64,000 bases of DNA, taken from Cyanobacteria bacterium P01_A01_bin.123 (lineage in GTDB: Bacteria > Cyanobacteriota > Cyanobacteriia > Phormidesmidales > Phormidesmidaceae). The DNA is taken from positions 74,403 to 138,402 of the forward strand of contig JBCBZT010000015.1 in NCBI GenBank assembly GCA_039815185.1, written 5' to 3'. The notes under the pieces were generated by a model, which searched no databases, had not been told where the DNA came from, and worked only from the letters and a program-made list of their open reading frames with translations. The translations under genes and the position numbers were made by a program. Within the stretch, counting starts at the first letter, position 1. Every line of letters begins with the position of its first letter. Below, piece by piece: positions 30,479 to 38,192 of this stretch.

Positions 30479-31384
30479 TTACAGTAATCCCTGCTCCTCT
30501 AGAAATTCGCGAGCCACTTCATCCGGTTCACGACCATTGCCAGCCACCTCCCAATTGAGGGTGCTCATGGTTTCATCGTCAAGGAGGACTGTGACGCTGT
30601 TCAGCACCTCAGCAATTTCAGGGTTAGCATCTAGCGTTTCCTGACGAATAAAGGGTGCAACTGGATAGGGAGGCCAGAATTTCTGGTCGTCTTCGAGCAC
30701 CAACAGGTCAAACGCGGCAATTTGGCCGTCGGTGCCATAGCCCGTGGTGACATCGATATCGCCAGTATCCAGACCGCTGTAAAGTAGACCGGGGTCTAGA
30801 GACTTAACCTCAGCAAAGTCAAAACCGCCATAGGTTTCTTTGAGCGCAGGTAACCCATCGCTACGGTCGGCAAATTCTAAGTCAGTGCCAAAAATTAGAC
30901 CACTGGCGTTTGCAGAAATATCACTAACGGTAGTTACCCCCAATTCATTGGCGCGATCTTTGGTCATCACCAGCGCATAAGTATTGTTGAAAGAGGTCGG
31001 ATCTAGCAAAACAACGCTGAACTGCTCGACATAGTCAGCTTTGACCTTGTCATACACATCCATCGTAGACATTGCCGGATCATAGGTTTGTTCTAGATGT
31101 ACCAGTAAGGCCGTGCCAGTATATTCAGGATACAGGTCGATTTCACCCGCAATTAGGGCTGCATGGTTTTCGCTAGTGCCGCCAAGGGCATTGTAATCAG
31201 CGTTGTAGCCCGCGTTGTCGAGCACCATTTCAAACATGTGGCCTAGCAGATACTGCTCGGTAAATTCTTTTGAGCCAATTTTGATCTCAGGACCATCTGA
31301 TGAGGAACCCCCGCTACAAGCAGATAGAGCCACCGTCAACAGAAGAGCTGTGCTGGTTAGAAGGGTTCGTCTTTGAAACTGCAT
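30479..31384 (-). CDS. Osmoprotectant ABC transporter substrate-binding lipoprotein (OpuCC/OsmX-like)
   Basis: LSAC lipobox, IGSKEFTEQ, YPEYTGT, NNTY, DD..FWPPY. Confidence 0.92.
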   Translation of the reverse strand: MQFQRRTLLTSTALLLTVALSACSGGSSSDGPEIKIGSKEFTEQYLLGHMFEMVLDNAGYNADYNALGGTSENHAALIAGEIDLYPEYTGTALLVHLEQTYDPAMSTMDVYDKVKADYVEQFSVVLLDPTSFNNTYALVMTKDRANELGVTTVSDISANASGLIFGTDLEFADRSDGLPALKETYGGFDFAEVKSLDPGLLYSGLDTGDIDVTTGYGTDGQIAAFDLLVLEDDQKFWPPYPVAPFIRQETLDANPEIAEVLNSVTVLLDDETMSTLNWEVAGNGREPDEVAREFLEEQGLL

Positions 31385-31439
31385 AATCGATGCCTCTTGA
31401 AAAATAGTTTATGGATAGGGAGGGGACAGGGATGGGGGA

Positions 31440-32534
31440 TTAAGGTGCCGCTGCTGTCCGCAATTTTGCAACATTTGCAGTAGCGCGGAAATGATAGTAA
31501 CTGATGATCAGTTCAATACCCGTAATCACTGCGATACTCAGAACTGCCCCAATTAACCAAACAAGGCCTAATGAAGGCGTTTGCTGAATCTTTGTGGTTA
31601 GCCCAAACACCAGCCAAACAAAAGCTGCCGCAGCTGTGCCAAAAGTGATCAGTGTAATCGGCCAAGCGTTGCCACTTTCCCCTCGACGGGGCCACAGCGT
31701 GGCTACTAAGCCCAGCACCAGAACTGGGAGCCCTATAGTCCGATACTCAGCGTGTAGTCCGGTGAGCACGACTGGGTCACTGCCAGCGACAGCCTGGGTT
31801 TCCCAGGGGAGGAGGACGCCAAATAACAGCGGCATTGCTGCTACAACGCATAGTAAGCCAATTAGGCCACCGGCCTTGCGCTGAGAGGTACCAATCTTTA
31901 AACCCTTGGGAGTCACCCAAGTCTCTAGCCGACCAAAGGCTTCTTCAAAGTAGAAAGCTAAGATTGTTGCTGGAATGGCCCCCAGCAGCATCACGTGGTC
32001 ACGGTTGAGCTGATGGCCTCGTAAAATCAAGTCGCCCAGCCCACCAGCCCCAATAAATCCGCCAAAGGTGGTGCTGGCGACAATGACCACGGCTGAGGTG
32101 CGAATGCCCGCCATAATCACCGCGATCGCGACTGGCAGCTCTACCTTAAATAAGACCTCAATGTCGCGCATGCCCATGCCTCGGGCCGCTTCTTTCATAT
32201 TGGCATCAACTTGCTCAATGCCGATCAGGGTGTTGATCAACACTGGCAGCGTGCCGATAAACGTCAGCGCCAAAATGGTGGGTGGGCGACCAATGCCTAG
32301 CAGCGGCAAGGCTAGCGCCAGCACCGCCAAAGTGGGAAACGTATTGCCAATTTTGCCCGCGTTGAGCAAAAACTTTCGCAACCAGCCTACCCGCGACCCC
32401 AGAATGCCAAATAAGACGCCCAGGGTCACCGCGATCGCCAGTGCTGTAAAGGTAATTTGCAAATGCTGACTTAGGGCAGTCGTAAAGTCTTGAGAGCGTT
32501 CGATGAAATACGCCCACATGTCTTGAAATAGCAT
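31440..32534 (-). CDS. Osmoprotectant ABC permease with C-terminal membrane extension
   Basis: EAARGMGM EAA loop, IGAGGLG; about 150 extra residues with more hydrophobic segments. Confidence 0.88.
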   Translation of the reverse strand: MLFQDMWAYFIERSQDFTTALSQHLQITFTALAIAVTLGVLFGILGSRVGWLRKFLLNAGKIGNTFPTLAVLALALPLLGIGRPPTILALTFIGTLPVLINTLIGIEQVDANMKEAARGMGMRDIEVLFKVELPVAIAVIMAGIRTSAVVIVASTTFGGFIGAGGLGDLILRGHQLNRDHVMLLGAIPATILAFYFEEAFGRLETWVTPKGLKIGTSQRKAGGLIGLLCVVAAMPLLFGVLLPWETQAVAGSDPVVLTGLHAEYRTIGLPVLVLGLVATLWPRRGESGNAWPITLITFGTAAAAFVWLVFGLTTKIQQTPSLGLVWLIGAVLSIAVITGIELIISYYHFRATANVAKLRTAAAP

Positions 32535-32580
32535 CCAACCCCCAATAGAAATTCCAGTCAAAATTGCGATAGATGAATGC

Positions 32581-33270
32581 CTACCCTTGGGTGGCACCCG
32601 GCAAAGACCGCTCAATCTTGCCAATGACAAAGTCAAAAAACACAGCTAGCAACGCTGCCCCGAGTGCCCCAGCCACCACTTTGTCGTTACGTCCGCCGCC
32701 TGCCGCAATCCCTTCAAAAATCAGCTTGCCAAGGCTGCTGGCCCCAAAATAAGAGGCCAGGGTGGCGAGACTGATGGTGGAGACCACGGCAATGCGAATA
32801 CCGGCAAAGATGACCGGCAGTGCTAATGGTAATTCCACTTGCAGCAAAATGCTCCGCTGGGTCATGCCCATCCCCCGCGCTGCTTCGATAATGGCCGGAT
32901 CAACGCCGTCGATGCCCACTGCCGTATTGCGAATGATTGCCAGTAGGGAATAAACGGTGAGGGCGATAACGGCTGGCGTAAAGCCAATCCCCACGATGGG
33001 AATCATCAACCCAAACATCGCCAAACTGGGTACGGTGTAGAGCATCCCTGCCAGCTTGATCACGGGGTCATAGAGCAGCCGCAGGCGGGTAATCAGCACC
33101 CCTAGCGGCAGGCTAATCAGCACTGAAAAAAACAGGGTCACAAACGTAATGAGCAGATGACCCCATAAAAATTCCAGCACCCGATCTGGGCGACCGACCC
33201 CTGGCAAATAGTACAGGACACCGTCCTTCAAGCTGATCAGGAATTCCCCTAGATTGGTAATAAAATCCAT
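32581..33270 (-). CDS. Osmoprotectant ABC permease
   Basis: EAARGMGM, VELPLALPVI; AGGAGG RBS. Confidence 0.92.
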   Translation of the reverse strand: MDFITNLGEFLISLKDGVLYYLPGVGRPDRVLEFLWGHLLITFVTLFFSVLISLPLGVLITRLRLLYDPVIKLAGMLYTVPSLAMFGLMIPIVGIGFTPAVIALTVYSLLAIIRNTAVGIDGVDPAIIEAARGMGMTQRSILLQVELPLALPVIFAGIRIAVVSTISLATLASYFGASSLGKLIFEGIAAGGGRNDKVVAGALGAALLAVFFDFVIGKIERSLPGATQG

Positions 33271-33280
33271 GCTGCTCCTC

Positions 33281-34408
33281 CTAGCGTCCCGTTGGCATCG
33301 GTTGGGTTTCAGCAATTAATGCCTGGGCATTTTCAACGGTGACCAGACCGAGCAATCGCTGGTGGGGATCAACCACAGGTAGGTAGCGAATGCCGTAGCT
33401 CAGCATCATGGAGAAAGCATCTTTCATAGTGGCTTCTGCTTCGGTGGTAGAAACCAGATGATGCAGCATTGCCTTAGCCTGCTTGCCAGGATGGGTTTGG
33501 GCCTCTTCGAGCCCCACATACCCAGCCAGTCGGTTGGTCTCGTCTGTAATGAACAGGCTATCGACATTATGCGATCGCATTTTGGCTGCCAAATCTGCCC
33601 CACTGTCATTGACGTTGCCCAACAGTGGCGCTTGCTGCATGACCTCACCCACGCGGACTAGGGTTAGCCGCTTGAGACCACGGTCTGCGCCAACAAAGTC
33701 GGCGACAAAGTCATCCGCAGGTCTGGACAGAATATTGGCTGGGGTATCGAGCTGGGCTAGCACTCCCCCAACCTGCAAAATGCAAACGAGCGTCCCCATT
33801 TTGAGCGCCTCGTCAATATCGTGGGTGACAAACATGATGGTCTTCTTGAGCTGTTTTTGCAGTCGCAAAAACTCATTTTGTAGGCGATCGCGCGTAATCG
33901 GATCAATCGCCCCAAAGGGTTCATCCATCAGCATGACGGGCGGATCTGCTGCCAATGCCCGTGCCACCCCGACCCGCTGCCGCTGCCCCCCGGATAGCTG
34001 CTTGGGATAGCGATCCCGAAACTGAGCCGGATCCAGCCCCACAATGTCTAGCAGCTCATCGGCCCGTCGATCAATTTTGGCTTTGTTCCAGCCGAGGAGT
34101 TTGGGTACCACGGCAATATTGTCGCGGATGGTGAAGTGAGGGAACAGGCCAATTTGCTGAATGACGTAACCGATACTGCGTCGGAGTTCGACCTGATTTT
34201 GCTTGAGCACATTGCGCCCGCCTACAAAAATCTCACCGCTGGTGGGCTCGATCAGGCGGTTGACCATTTTCATCGTGGTGGTCTTGCCACAACCAGACGG
34301 CCCAATCACCACGCAGGTCTCACCTTCCGGCACAGACATGGTTAAGTGGCTGACCGAAGGCTGGCTAGCCCCAGCGTAAACCTTAACCACATCATTAAAC
34401 TGAATCAT
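33281..34408 (-). CDS. Osmoprotectant ABC ATPase with CBS domains (OpuCA/OsmV-like)
   Basis: GPSGCGKT, LSGGQRQR, MDEPF, C-terminal CBS pair. Confidence 0.94.
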   Translation of the reverse strand: MIQFNDVVKVYAGASQPSVSHLTMSVPEGETCVVIGPSGCGKTTTMKMVNRLIEPTSGEIFVGGRNVLKQNQVELRRSIGYVIQQIGLFPHFTIRDNIAVVPKLLGWNKAKIDRRADELLDIVGLDPAQFRDRYPKQLSGGQRQRVGVARALAADPPVMLMDEPFGAIDPITRDRLQNEFLRLQKQLKKTIMFVTHDIDEALKMGTLVCILQVGGVLAQLDTPANILSRPADDFVADFVGADRGLKRLTLVRVGEVMQQAPLLGNVNDSGADLAAKMRSHNVDSLFITDETNRLAGYVGLEEAQTHPGKQAKAMLHHLVSTTEAEATMKDAFSMMLSYGIRYLPVVDPHQRLLGLVTVENAQALIAETQPMPTGR

Positions 34409-34593
34409 CGGGATCAAAATGAATTTCCTCTGTTAGCAACAGGGAGTAGGGCATGACGCTGATACAGCGTCAATGCTTCACAGGAAAACGGTATTTTTTT
34501 GTCCCAGGTTCTACTCCAAGGAATATTGTTTCCAACATTCCAGCAATTTATCGCTGTTTCCAGCATTCTTAGAGATTGGTTAACAACCCTCTG

Positions 34594-34609
34594 TGTAAAT
34601 TCTTTTACA
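34594..34609. promoter_or_regulatory. Candidate NtcA site
   Basis: TGTA-AATTCTTT-TACA within TGTGTA..TACACA palindrome. Confidence 0.4.
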
Positions 34610-34882
34610 CATTTCTCTCATGGTCTAACCTTGAACACTGAATGATAGGCATACAGCGACAACATCGACATAACAACCGTTAGTTTAACACTCAACCTCT
34701 GTAGCAACGGTTTCATGCAGACGATATACAGTTATTTTCGGGGTGTGAAGACATATTTGTAACCATCTGTATCAATACATTACAGCTATACTGATGAATT
34801 TCTATCACAATGACTACATTGTCAGAGGTTGATTGTTATTTTAGAGCGCTGCTTACTAAAACCCATAGGCTTAATAGGGTAC

Positions 34883-34910
34883 TTGACACTGATTGGAGAA
34901 TTGCTTTAAT
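34883..34910 (+). promoter_or_regulatory. Sigma70-like promoter of the thrS leader
   Basis: TTGACA-N16-TTTAAT with extended TGn, about 30 nt before leader ATG. Confidence 0.6.
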
Positions 34911-34941
34911 AGAAATGTGCCGGAGCAAATCTTTTCTGACT

Positions 34942-35004
34942 ATGAACACAGCAACTACCCTGACTACCACTACCCCCTCAACTATTTCCCTAGGAGGGTT
35001 GTAA
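34942..35004 (+). CDS. Thr-rich attenuator leader peptide 1 (MNTATTLTTTTPSTISLGGL)
   Basis: 8 Thr codons in 20; followed by a terminator whose 5' arm can pair with GGAGGG at the leader end. Confidence 0.8.
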   Translation: MNTATTLTTTTPSTISLGGL

Positions 35005-35037
35005 GGCGCTGTACTGAAATTTAGTCTTACTACTTTA

Positions 35038-35074
35038 ATTGCCCTCCAGATATTCTCTGGGGGGCAATGTTTTT
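35038..35074 (+). terminator. Attenuator terminator 1
   Basis: ATTGCCCTCCAGA-TATTC-TCTGGGGGGCAAT then GTTTTT. Confidence 0.85.
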
Positions 35075-35136
35075 CTAGCTTTTGTATTTAAGACAGGTTA
35101 ACCAGAATGCTTATTTTTCTGACAATGCCGTTTGCA

Positions 35137-35184
35137 ATGAACACGACTACCACTACCCCCTCGATCACGCCTGGAGGGACGTGA
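35137..35184 (+). CDS. Thr-rich attenuator leader peptide 2 (MNTTTTTPSITPGGT; in-frame upstream ATG at 35125)
   Basis: 5 consecutive plus 2 more Thr codons; homologous to leader 1. Confidence 0.8.
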   Translation: MNTTTTTPSITPGGT

Positions 35185-35212
35185 CGATTGATGGCGCCTG
35201 TCACGCATTTGT

Positions 35213-35241
35213 CCCTCCTGGCCTGGCTTGGAGGGTTTTTT
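35213..35241 (+). terminator. Attenuator terminator 2
   Basis: CCCTCC..GGAGGG followed by TTTTTT; 5' arm GTCCCTCC is the exact complement of GGAGGGAC in leader 2. Confidence 0.85.
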
Positions 35242-35392
35242 ATTGCCTTGAAAACTTAGCCACATTCAGATCTGTAACGCTCCTGAGCTAAAAGCTCAAG
35301 CGTTTTCCCGGGTTGGAACGCGGCGTTTTGCGCGCCAATTCAAGGTTGCAAATCAGATGGGGTTTATAACTCAAACCAAAGGAGCATTGACA

Positions 35393-36619
35393 ATGGCGGA
35401 TCACCGTGAACTTGCAAAAGATATGGATTTGTTTCATTTTGAGGCGCATAGTCCAGGCATGGTGTTTTGGCACCCACTGGGACTTCGGCTCTTTCGCAGC
35501 CTGGAAGACTTTATGAGACAGGTTTATCAAACCTATGGTTTTGAGGAAGTGCGATCGCCCATTGCCCTCAATCGATCACTATGGGAACGCTCCGGGCATT
35601 GGGAAAAATTTCGACAGGGAATGTTTGTCGTCGGCAGTGTAACCGCAGATGAAAATGATGCCTCAGACCTATCTGTTCTCAATCCCGACTATGCGTTGAA
35701 GCCCATGTCTTGTCCGGCCCATATTGCCATTTATCAGTCTCGCAAACGCAGCTATCGGGAAAATCCGATGCGATTAATGGAGTTTGGTATCTGCCATCGT
35801 AATGAATTGTCCGGCACATTATCGGGATGTATGCGGCTGCGGCAATTTGTCCAGGATGATGCCCATATTTTCTGTTGTGAATCTGATGTGCAGCAGGAAA
35901 TTAGCAGTTTTCTCAAGATGGTGCAGCAAGTTTATGCGGCCTTTGGTTATGAGCAATTTTCTCTGCAAATTTCCCTTAGACCAGAGCAGCGGCTTGGTGC
36001 CGATTCTCTTTGGGATAGCGCTGAATCGCTGTTAATCAAAGCCGTTGAATCTCTGGGGTACCGCTATCAATTAGCCGCCAACGAAGGGGCATTCTACGGG
36101 CCTAAGCTGGAAATTAGTTTGCAAGATCAGCTGGGGCGATCGTGGCAGTGTGGCACATTTCAAGTTGATTTCAACCTGCCTCAAATGTTTGAACTTGCTT
36201 TTGTGAATGAACTGGGGCAATTAGAGCGTCCCGTCATGTTGCACCAAGCTGTTCTGGGATCGCTGGAGCGCTGGATCGGCATTTTGTTAGAGCACCACGG
36301 CGGTATCCTTCCAGTGTGGATTGCTCCTGTACAGGTTGCGATCGCGTCGATTTCCAATAAATCAGCCGACTGGGCAGAAATAATTTTTGCTCGGCTTCAG
36401 CAGCTAGGGGTAAGGGTGGAGCTGCATAACCAAGATCGCACCATCAGTAAGAAAATTCGTGAACTGTCCAAATGCAGAATTCCCTTAATTGCGGTGGTCG
36501 GTGAGCAAGAAGCTAGAGATCAAAGGCTAAATCTTCGACGTTTAGGAACCTCAGAACAACAAGACATGAATCTAGCTGAGTTTGAGCAAAAGTTAGCCGT
36601 GCTCTCCAAACCCGCTTGA
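35393..36619 (+). CDS. thrS: Threonyl-tRNA synthetase, short form without N-terminal TGS/editing domains (408 aa)
   Basis: AAGGAG RBS; begins DHRELAKDMDLF; SGHW, KPMSCPAH, HRNE, QDDAHIF, GAFYGPK, WQCGT.QVDF, H.AVLGSLER, anticodon domain. Confidence 0.93.
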   Translation: MADHRELAKDMDLFHFEAHSPGMVFWHPLGLRLFRSLEDFMRQVYQTYGFEEVRSPIALNRSLWERSGHWEKFRQGMFVVGSVTADENDASDLSVLNPDYALKPMSCPAHIAIYQSRKRSYRENPMRLMEFGICHRNELSGTLSGCMRLRQFVQDDAHIFCCESDVQQEISSFLKMVQQVYAAFGYEQFSLQISLRPEQRLGADSLWDSAESLLIKAVESLGYRYQLAANEGAFYGPKLEISLQDQLGRSWQCGTFQVDFNLPQMFELAFVNELGQLERPVMLHQAVLGSLERWIGILLEHHGGILPVWIAPVQVAIASISNKSADWAEIIFARLQQLGVRVELHNQDRTISKKIRELSKCRIPLIAVVGEQEARDQRLNLRRLGTSEQQDMNLAEFEQKLAVLSKPA

Positions 36620-36825
36620 GTTTCTTTGCCCAGATGATGAACTTAAAGCGGGAAATCATTGCTAAATGAGAACTCAGAAGTCAGATCTAGTCTCATACTG
36701 ACTTCTAGGTTTTGACATCTAGATTCCTTTACTATCAGGCCTTGCTGGCTTAAATTAGACGCCGAAGGGAGTGATCTCTGGGGTTGGGCAACGCAGCTGA
36801 GTGAGCCAGACGTAAGGGAGGAGGC

Positions 36826-37428
36826 ATGGACGTCCGCATTTGTTTTATTGGGGATTCCTTTGTGAACGGGACAGGGGATCCGACCTATTTAGGCTGGACA
36901 GGGCGCGTGTGTGCTGAGGTGGCGCAACAGGGCCATGCGGTTACCGCTTACAACCTAGGTATCCGTCGAGAAACCAGCCTGCAAATTGAGCAGCGCTGGC
37001 CCCAAGAAGTGGTGTGTCGTTTACCCAATGACTGTCAGGGGCGCTTGGTATTTTCCTTTGGGGCAAACGATATGACTGTAGAACAGGGCAGTAATCGAGT
37101 CGATCTGGCAACATCGATTGCTGCCGCCCGACGCCTATTGCAGGCAGCATCCCGCCAGTATCCGGTGCTGATGGTGGGGCCACCTGCGATCGCCGTCAAT
37201 CCTGCCCATACGGATCGAATTACCCACCTTTCAGCTCAGTATGGAGACCTGTGCCACAGCTTAGGCGTTCCCTACTTAGAGACTTGTCGACTGACTGCCC
37301 AATCAGTTCTTTGGTCTGCAGAAGTGCAGGCCGGAGATGGCGCCCATCCCGGTGCTGGAGGATATGGCGAACTGGCAACCCTGGTGAGCAATTGGTCAGC
37401 TTGGCGCGACTGGTTTGATATCGATTAA
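36826..37428 (+). CDS. SGNH/GDSL hydrolase
   Basis: FIGDSF, NLG, FGAND, DGAHP. Confidence 0.9.
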   Translation: MDVRICFIGDSFVNGTGDPTYLGWTGRVCAEVAQQGHAVTAYNLGIRRETSLQIEQRWPQEVVCRLPNDCQGRLVFSFGANDMTVEQGSNRVDLATSIAAARRLLQAASRQYPVLMVGPPAIAVNPAHTDRITHLSAQYGDLCHSLGVPYLETCRLTAQSVLWSAEVQAGDGAHPGAGGYGELATLVSNWSAWRDWFDID

Positions 37429-37442
37429 CCCTTGGAAATGTC

Positions 37443-38192
37443 ATGTATCTGTCGTTGTTGACCATTTATCGAAATCGTCCCAACCATTTGCAAACGTTGT
37501 TGCGTTGGTGGGGTGGATTGCGGCCTGCTAATGGAGAGACGGCGTCAACGCAGCTCACGGATACTGAACTGATGGTAATCGAAGTCAATGAGAACCCCAC
37601 TCCAGGTTTAGCCGAATGGGTGGATCAAAAGCATGCCCGTTATATGCATTTGGCTTGCGGAGGCCCTTTGCATAAAACCCGGGGTTTAAATTTGGGGTTG
37701 CAATTATCCCAGGGACAATTCGTCGCACCGCTGGATGTGGACTTGCAACCCTGGCGGCAAACTTTAGGGGATCATTTGACCCTGGCGCGTAGTTCACCCC
37801 ATCTTCTAGTCACTGGGTATCGATTAATGCTGCCGATCGAAACTGCTGTACCTGAGGTGCGGTTAGAGCTGGTTGAACGGGCTGCGATCGCCCCTGAAGA
37901 CCAACCCACTGCCCTCCGCAAGCACCTATTGCAGGGTGAAAAATTTGGCGTTATGCCGTTTTTTGAACGCCAGCGCTTATTAGATATCGACGGTTGGGAT
38001 GAAGCCTTTGTCGGCTGGGGAGCTGAAGATCAAGATGTGATCGAGCGCTACTTGGGCGATGGTCGCCACCTGTGTCGTTGTCCCCACCTGGTGTATTTGC
38101 ACTGGCATCATCCGGTCGATGAGCAGTGGCAATCCGCTGCGATCGTTGAGGCGAATCGGCAACATTACTACACGAAGAGAACCAGCCCCTAA
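37443..38192 (+). CDS. Glycosyltransferase (GT2-like with galactosyltransferase C-terminal motif)
   Basis: NLG, DVD, GWDEAFVGWGAEDQD, HWHH. Confidence 0.85.
   Translation: MYLSLLTIYRNRPNHLQTLLRWWGGLRPANGETASTQLTDTELMVIEVNENPTPGLAEWVDQKHARYMHLACGGPLHKTRGLNLGLQLSQGQFVAPLDVDLQPWRQTLGDHLTLARSSPHLLVTGYRLMLPIETAVPEVRLELVERAAIAPEDQPTALRKHLLQGEKFGVMPFFERQRLLDIDGWDEAFVGWGAEDQDVIERYLGDGRHLCRCPHLVYLHWHHPVDEQWQSAAIVEANRQHYYTKRTSP

Follow-up and report, generated by a model that had tools for sequence, protein, structure and literature searches.

Predicted tandem threonine-responsive leader-peptide attenuators upstream of a short, editing-less threonyl-tRNA synthetase gene in cyanobacteria

This study considered a 64,000-nucleotide (nt) stretch of DNA from Cyanobacteria bacterium P01_A01_bin.123 (assembly GCA_039815185.1, contig JBCBZT010000015.1, positions 74,403 to 138,402), referred to here as the window, and within it the region upstream of a short thrS gene encoding a threonyl-tRNA synthetase (ThrRS). 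Between a putative promoter and this gene lie two units in series, each composed of a small open reading frame (ORF) rich in threonine codons that carries GGAGGG near its end, followed by a predicted intrinsic terminator with CCCUCC in its 5' arm (Table 1). E. coli thrL and pheM are classical ribosome-mediated attenuators, and an earlier reading made from the sequence alone (hereafter the sequence-only reading) had proposed that the two units act as threonine-sensing leader-peptide attenuators, arranged serially ahead of a short cyanobacterial thrS. The analysis supports this proposal through the conservation of the units, the covariation of terminator 1, the invariance of the antiterminator core, the modelled ribosome geometry and the threonine depletion of the encoded enzyme.

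Table 1. Coordinates (window positions) of the features in and around the thrS leader region.
Feature	Positions	Strand	Details
Putative sigma-70-type promoter	34883..34910	+	-35 TTGACA 34883-34888; degenerate -10 TTTAAT 34905-34910
Leader ORF 1	34942..35004	+	MNTATTLTTTTPSTISLGGL*; 8 Thr codons; ends GGA GGG TTG TAA
GGAGGG, 5' strand of antiterminator 1 (leader-1 Gly-Gly codons)	34993..34998	+	pairs with CCCUCC in 29/29 aligned sequences
Inner helix in antiterminator fold	35001..35030	+	GUAAGGC 35001-35007 (across the stop codon) with GUCUUAC 35024-35030
Predicted intrinsic terminator 1	35038..35074	+	13-bp stem 35038-35068; CCCUCC 35042-35047; T5 35070-35074
Leader ORF 2	35107..35184	+	...MNTTTTTPSITPGGT*; 7 Thr from ATG 35137; stop 35182-35184
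Conserved 1:2-type helix, unit 2	35166..35183	+	CACGCC with GG/CGUG; RNAalifold consensus
GGAGGG, 5' strand of antiterminator 2	35173..35178	+	98.6% paired with CCCUCC across 24 sequences; invariant
Predicted intrinsic terminator 2	35213..35241	+	CCCTCC 35213-35218 / GGAGGG 35230-35235; T6 35236-35241
Spacer, 151 nt	35242..35392	+	dispersed genomic repeat; AGGAG ribosome-binding site 35380-35384
Short thrS (408-aa ThrRS)	35393..36619	+	Pfam PF00587 and PF03129 only; 6 Thr residues

The conservation of this arrangement was assessed at 33 short-thrS loci with upstream DNA, of which 30 were retrieved via the protein alone and three via a leader pattern. The leader-pattern search of metagenome DNA returned seven loci, four of them true (L130, L131, L132, L135) and three due to chance (L129, L133, L134). 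Left out before counting were L128, whose contig stops short of the leader, L132, a near copy of L158, L156 and L157, which occupy the same places as L145 and L139, L024, an ambiguous truncated full-length type, and the plasmid copy H2. A ThrRS search of genome contigs gave full-length ThrRS only, which later served as controls. The control count covered 99 full-length thrS loci for which 700 nt ahead of the gene were available. For the structural comparisons, the unit-1 alignment (A1) held 29 of the 33 units and the unit-2 alignment (A2) 24 of the 29, with near-duplicates excluded; unit 2 of L139 is absent from A2, the script having found no hairpin there.

Upstream of short thrS homologues, where the sequence-only reading had proposed to search for threonine-rich upstream ORFs and to count the units, such ORFs were found at all 33 loci and doubled units at 29. 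Unit 1 occurs at 30/30 of the protein-retrieved loci (33/33 overall, each with an equivalent of leader ORF 1), and a complete unit 2 at 26/30 (29/33 overall). Among the full-length thrS controls, a threonine-rich small ORF was present at just 2 of the 99 loci, neither with a GG-x-stop end. Within the 8.1-Mb genome from which the window derives, 140 stops of threonine-rich small ORFs were counted, five of them with a terminator-like hairpin behind, and of those five only the two units described here also show a 6-nt complementarity of the ORF end to the hairpin 5' arm; the leader region is single copy in this genome. The likeness of unit 1 to unit 2 exceeds that of shuffled sequences (median 34 vs 16). 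General concerted evolution of the units was considered and found no support, the own unit 2 being top-ranked in only 2 of 28 loci. L126 and L127 carry a single leader and, behind it, a pair of adjacent hairpins (about 130-30 nt ahead of thrS). In L140 and L141, a second threonine-rich ORF persists about 220-40 nt ahead of thrS, but its GGAGGG end and hairpin have decayed.

For unit 1, sequence and folding agree with the original description of a leader with eight threonine codons, a 13-bp hairpin and a T tract. The terminator-1 hairpin reached -22.8 kcal/mol (z -6.4), with 0 of 200 shuffles equally stable. Across the alignment, 92% of its cells were paired, 7 of its 13 pairs were changed on both sides and 0 of 500 shuffles scored as high, a covariation score that is inflated by relatedness according to a warning of the covariation tool. 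The coordinates of unit 2 (a seven-threonine leader to 35184, the CCCTCC/GGAGGG hairpin and T6) likewise agree with the description. The terminator-2 hairpin reached -14.1 kcal/mol (z -2.05; 9 of 200 shuffles equally stable) and was 97% paired over 24 sequences, with one pair changed on both sides; a simple terminator scan of the window made no call at this position. The proposed antiterminator, in which GGAGGG pairs with the CCCTCC 5' arm of the terminator, was kept in essentially all aligned sequences of both units. Within antiterminator 1, the inner helix had 88% of cells paired over six pairs, with one-sided changes only.

Other details of the sequence-only reading had to be revised. The competing 1:2 helix between CCCTC in the leader and GGAGGG was only 59% paired, without covariation in unit 1, and is rejected as a conserved feature. 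Unit 2 keeps a 1:2-type helix in another register (CACGCC with GG/CGUG), which was 96% paired with no pair changed on both sides and is a candidate pause or anti-antiterminator hairpin. The exact GACTACCACTACCCCCTC said to be common to both units is not conserved among homologues. The shared start context TTTTCTGAC(T/A)ATG is present, but in unit 2 it marks the ATG at 35125 and not that at 35137. Leader 2, which terminates GGA GGG ACG TGA, has three possible start codons, the in-frame ATGs at 35107, 35125 and 35137; homologues frequently carry AAGGA ahead of an upstream leader-2 ATG. The proposed TTGACA-N16-TTTAAT promoter has correct coordinates and its -35 element is retained in 31/33 loci (including L006, where it lies just at the edge of the scanned interval), but its -10 hexamer is degenerate, without the conserved A, and a consensus promoter scan made no call there; the -10 element is possibly TG-extended (about 34905-34912). 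The distance from TTGACA to the leader-1 start is 59 nt in the window and at 16 other loci. In the Acaryochloris marina plasmid copies L152 (5580-5650) and L153, TTGACA is replaced, with the -10 element and both units intact.

The pattern of variation in the leaders separates codon constraint from RNA constraint. Over the 12 codons before GGA, threonine accounts for 216 of the 396 unit-1 codons and 205 of the 348 unit-2 codons, with a background of 5.9% in long ORFs. All four threonine codons (ACC, ACT, ACA and ACG) are used in the homologue leaders, and because this third-position variation suits threonine, the leaders are read as threonine and not as histidine or proline frames; the latter were rejected, shifted frames reading mixed Pro/Leu or His/Tyr. 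The leader peptides differ in length and sequence save for the threonines and the Gly-Gly pair, which is encoded by GGA in 61/62 units and by GGG in 62/62 (genomic glycine usage 14% and 26%, respectively). Since the synonymous sites of threonine vary and GGA-GGG is fixed, which its pairing with CCCUCC would demand, the threonine run is held as codons and GGAGGG as RNA.

The effect of ribosome position was modelled with a co-transcriptional snapshot, in which the transcript was folded up to the emergence of the terminator 5' arm with the ribosome footprint masked. In this model, the antiterminator had a median probability (P) of ~1 when the A-site was at least 4-5 codons before GGA (33 unit-1 and 29 unit-2 sequences), and P = 0 for every A-site position from two codons before GGA through the stop in the same sets. 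Long threonine runs lie mostly inside the permissive zone and single late threonine codons outside it. In silico, the antiterminator would be exclusive of the terminator and gated by the position of the ribosome.

The gene behind the two units encodes an unusual enzyme. It scored 455.4 bits against TIGR00418 (cut-off 383.65), is co-linear, starting at its residue 1, with the crystallised E. coli construct spanning 242-642, and has C107, R136 (the motif-2 arginine), H158 and H284 aligned to E. coli C334, R363, H385 and H511, the zinc ligands C107/H158/H284 being kept. According to Pfam, it is without the N-terminal TGS and editing domains, as are the 120 listed relatives (325-455 aa); longer or split forms of the clade lay outside this domain comparison. 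The median threonine content of 114 short proteins is 1.46%, vs 4.08% in 32 cyanobacterial and 3.79% in 77 other full-length ThrRS over the same domains. The window ThrRS has six threonines vs 16-18 in its paralogues, and 5 of 6 conserved threonine columns are replaced. Short ThrRS on other branches (P0224, P0270, P0191) have 0, 0 and 1 threonine residues, respectively.

Three further thrS genes, all full length, are present in the same genome, one similar to ThrRS-T1 and two similar to ThrRS-T2 of Anabaena; the T2-like copies (87.5% DNA identity) lie at G000:C40:3-1805 (L002) and in the G000:C24:11628-12794 region (L003), and one of them may stem from contamination (assembly 6%). Upstream of the C24 copy are Zur-like boxes. 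In 7/7 carrier genomes examined, the short gene is accompanied by at least one other, weaker ThrRS match, and the short ThrRS therefore looks accessory. The short forms make up one clade apart from T1 and T2 (SH-aLRT support 99; quick tree of 59 rows). This quick fallback tree has long branches among the non-cyanobacterial short ThrRS that leave the deeper placement unsure, and no donor is named for that reason. With its separate clade, and with no Zur-like box at the promoter in 28 loci, the enzyme is not of the ThrRS-T2 class. Anabaena ThrRS-T2 is likewise an accessory, error-prone ThrRS beside an essential T1 (PMC4787780), but it is full length and Zur-controlled, whereas the short enzyme has its own clade and coexists with T2-like genes.

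Close relatives of the short ThrRS (62-99% identity) occur in Acaryochloris, Moorena, Nodosilinea, Pleurocapsa, Gloeocapsopsis, Scytonema, Calothrix, Nostoc and others. Their occurrence is patchy: 14 of 172 genomes of the family carry one, 14 short forms were found among 400 genomes of the class (six weaker class-level matches being full-length ThrRS), and 5 of 401 genomes in another order. Three copies are on A. marina plasmids, and both of the two examined were typed as conjugative. The genes flanking short thrS vary between loci, so that thrS moves together with its promoter and leaders as a cassette.

From this anatomy and the modelled switch, we infer a course of leader translation, termination and induction, together with its trigger. 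With ample Thr-tRNA, the ribosome would reach the leader stop and mask GGAGGG, the CCCUCC hairpin would form and the polymerase would halt at the U-tract; leaked transcripts would then encounter unit 2. With Thr-tRNA scarce, either through threonine starvation or because an inhibitor or the loss of zinc disables the housekeeping ThrRS, a ribosome would halt inside the threonine run, 4-5 codons or more ahead of GGA. GGAGGG would then seize the emerging CCCUCC, and read-through of both units into thrS would follow. The second unit would chiefly lower basal expression of the error-prone enzyme and might also make the response steeper. Overall, tandem ribosome-mediated attenuators quite probably turn on a mobile, editing-less backup ThrRS at Thr-tRNA shortage, a reading that draws on sequence comparison and folding models. 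The termination context is in keeping with it: no Rho match over the cut-off was obtained in 5/5 genomes, so that intrinsic termination is the available route, and Rho is described as absent from Cyanobacteriota (PMC12360218). In the genome of the window, 10 of 93 terminator-like sites are at most 12 nt from a stop codon (4296 gene ends; a rough count with no control genome), and this scarcity of stop-proximal terminators fits coupled translation.

Several points weigh against tandem attenuation or limit the evidence for it. Unit detection demanded threonine-rich frames, while the choice of loci rested on the protein, and because the loci belong to one clade with many close kin, their counts are not independent. 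The antiterminator cores of both units are invariant and give no covariation signal, and leader 1 is without a clear Shine-Dalgarno sequence. When folded free of ribosomes, the window transcript formed the antiterminator with P 0.91 (unit 1) and 0.75 (unit 2), the medians being 0.48 and 1.0; shut-off therefore hinges on prompt leader translation, and an untranslated leader may read through. Additionally, the antiterminator fold (-18.4 kcal/mol) falls short of the terminator (-22.8 kcal/mol) in stability, so read-through would need kinetic pre-emption. The loss of threonine from the enzyme represents one event per clade, and conserved columns of asparagine (0/3), tyrosine (3/9) and lysine (4/10) are also frequently lost, which makes the threonine-column count weak when taken alone. 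RNA reads from a relative, placed on L130 (three runs of one sample), amounted to only 6, 16 and 27 records, mostly sense, with the leader deeper than the coding sequence in X14 and X16 and not in X15; some of these reads extend across the site of the putative promoter, and the 49 records yielded no called 3' ends.

The sequence-only reading had two attenuators in series multiplying their read-through probabilities, which is plausible for basal leak and unproven for induction, because the arms of both units can cross-pair. Any of the G-rich arms can stand in for another, as can the two CCCUCC arms, and in an equilibrium fold of the window leader with ribosome 1 stalled, the leader-1 GGAGGG captured arm 2 with P 0.99, even with ribosome 2 at its stop. 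In L126 and L127, a stall frees the terminator-1 3' arm, which seizes arm 2 (P 0.84 and 1.00); once the ribosome is at the stop, P is 0.05 and 0.45. The modelling thus points to a domino effect, a single stall inactivating both terminators. It is possible, and we put this forward tentatively, that the units are a relay and not independent gates, a leader-1 stall also disarming terminator 2 with an OR-like or single-input output. However, the relay pairing bridges ~220 nt and comes from an equilibrium calculation, and the retention in leader 2 of its own threonine run and GGAGGG in 29/33 loci, also with hundreds of bases between the units (L008, L009), argues for sensing of its own.

The trigger for the tandem attenuators might be zinc starvation, a doubtful proposition that is compatible with the mechanism above and departs from it in selective purpose alone: low zinc would weaken the housekeeping ThrRS, Thr-tRNA would drop, and the leaders would report zinc indirectly. 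The T1 enzyme of Anabaena becomes inactive at low zinc, and a thrS2 mutant then has less charged tRNA(Thr) (PMC4787780). The A. marina pREB2 copy sits among cobW, cysS, folE and Zur-like boxes, L159 is flanked by cobW and folE and L160 by znuA, and changes fixed in the family adjoin two of the zinc ligands (N106S, R285Q). Zur-like boxes occur near 7 of 28 loci, mainly in a marine subclade, but 21 of the 28 lack them, the window among these, none is at the thrS promoter, and no direct Zur control of this promoter was found. Most neighbourhoods have no zinc connection, T2-like genes are already present in the genome (one of them preceded by Zur-like boxes), the short enzyme retains its zinc ligands, and any Thr-tRNA shortage would account for the threonine depletion.

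It is quite improbable that the cassette confers inducible resistance to ThrRS inhibitors of the borrelidin or obafluorin type, an idea modelled on the attenuator-controlled auxiliary TrpRS of Streptomyces. The patchy, mobile occurrence, including conjugative plasmids, would suit such a role, and 22 of 120 relatives (the P0073-P0120 subset) have Ser or Ala (FYSPK/FYAPK) at the position of E. coli Gly463, which is Gly in 109/109 full-length controls; such a substitution of Gly463 gives obafluorin and borrelidin resistance (PMC11252418). The window protein (FYGPK) is not ObaO-type and, like 92 of 114 relatives, keeps Gly at this position, and the neighbouring genes that were scanned showed no producer cluster. 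Translational control, or no switch at all (the elements being constitutive terminators or small peptides and GGAGGG serving as an internal site of Shine-Dalgarno type), is highly improbable: GGAGG fits the anti-Shine-Dalgarno sequence, and a 2016 paper describes attenuation in cyanobacteria as being without reliable data (PMC4833913), but no conserved start codon lies behind GGAGGG, the thrS ribosome-binding site is outside terminator 2 (stem end to start 29-189 nt), and two constitutive terminators ahead of a conserved intact gene would silence it.

A wider reading, which is unlikely as a whole, joins several of these elements into a mobile "threonine-famine" module, in which a cross-pairing attenuator relay would control a low-threonine, editing-less ThrRS that sustains ribosomes when Thr-tRNA collapses through starvation, zinc loss or ThrRS inhibitors, partly via serine on tRNA(Thr). 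If true, the double lock would keep a deliberate mistranslator silent, the cassette would be a regulated adaptive-mistranslation device, and cyanobacteria would have their first example of ribosome-coupled attenuation.

Several known systems share features with the tandem attenuators. Classical attenuators such as E. coli trpL (PMC3641672) are alike in having a cognate-codon leader ORF, a G-rich leader end able to pair with the 5' arm of the terminator, and an intrinsic terminator with a U-tract. The present case differs in that the unit is doubled, the target is a paralogue of a synthetase, the host is a cyanobacterium and the 1:2 helix of unit 1 is weak or absent. The closest counterpart in function is Bacillus thrZ (PMC2494555), where a second ThrRS is likewise placed downstream of serial elements that sense the charging of tRNA(Thr), in the form of 2-3 adjacent T-boxes. 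T-boxes bind uncharged tRNA directly, whereas the sensor here would be a translating ribosome and the enzyme is short, without the N-terminal region; the same source gives 0 T-boxes in 13 cyanobacteria. Among tandem leader ORFs, the closest case is in Salmonella, where mgtM and mgtP of mgtCBR (PMC3641672) are likewise two leader ORFs tied to alternative stem-loops, but they respond to separate signals (ATP and Pro-tRNA) and are without intrinsic terminators, whereas both leaders here would sense threonine, each with a predicted terminator. The uORFC-8-2 element before cysS in Rhodobacterales (PMC8632094) is likewise a predicted synthetase attenuator acting via cognate codons, but as a single unit with cysteine codons and in alphaproteobacteria.

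Rfam searches gave no assignment for the element. Thr_leader (RF00506, cut-off 55 bits) had no match at E<=10 in 33000-37500, 0 matches in the genome of the window and no match over the cut-off in any of 101 cyanobacterial genomes; across all of Rfam, seven chance-level matches at E<=10 fell in 33000-37500, the best being anti-hemB with 22.6 bits (cut-off 49.5), and no T-box was among them. The sequence-only reading had stated that no doubled version was known. Literature searches found no same-signal tandem leader-peptide attenuators, in agreement with this statement, but it is too broad in that the tandem T-boxes of thrZ and the two-signal mgtCBR are known. No published description of the element was found in full-text literature, with most subscription journals and supplements outside reach. 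A comparative survey of aminoacyl-tRNA synthetase attenuation by Lopatovskaya et al. in 2010 reportedly predicts thrS attenuation in some bacteria, and single-unit thrS attenuators may therefore be in print.

The surprise is limited, because the mechanism itself is textbook. For cyanobacteria, the element would nevertheless provide a conserved, precisely testable case of ribosome-mediated attenuation, and its same-signal tandem leader-peptide design would converge on the tandem T-boxes of Bacillus thrZ. The device would also be a ready-made reporter of transcription-translation coupling, since the first ribosome must keep pace with RNA polymerase; transcription in B. subtilis is uncoupled, opening the question of coupling elsewhere (PMC7858274). 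The enzyme indicates a third, uncharacterised cyanobacterial ThrRS type, which is editing-less, threonine-depleted and, in Acaryochloris, plasmid-borne.

Additional observations concern the surroundings of the two units. The spacer from terminator 2 to thrS is ~40 nt in most homologues vs 151 nt in the window, where a window-specific insertion in 35242-35392 holds a dispersed repeat with 15 other BLAST matches in the same genome. Insertions are also present in L008, L009, L136 and L142, between or behind the units, which are left unbroken. In the entry L009/L136/L143/L172 (G023, G332, G435), the short thrS match contains one in-frame stop (TGA, TAG and TAG, respectively), and the short thrS genes of G332 and G435 look broken by the in-frame TAG though their leaders are intact. 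A divergent ABC transporter operon (window 30479-34417, minus strand) encodes a CBS-domain ATPase, two permeases and a binding protein and is of the osmoprotectant type by appearance; it is not linked to thrS in other genomes. Elsewhere in the genome, ~14 tRNA matches lie within 2 kb (G000:C96:89970-91836), a cluster that resembles a cyanobacterial tRNA gene array.

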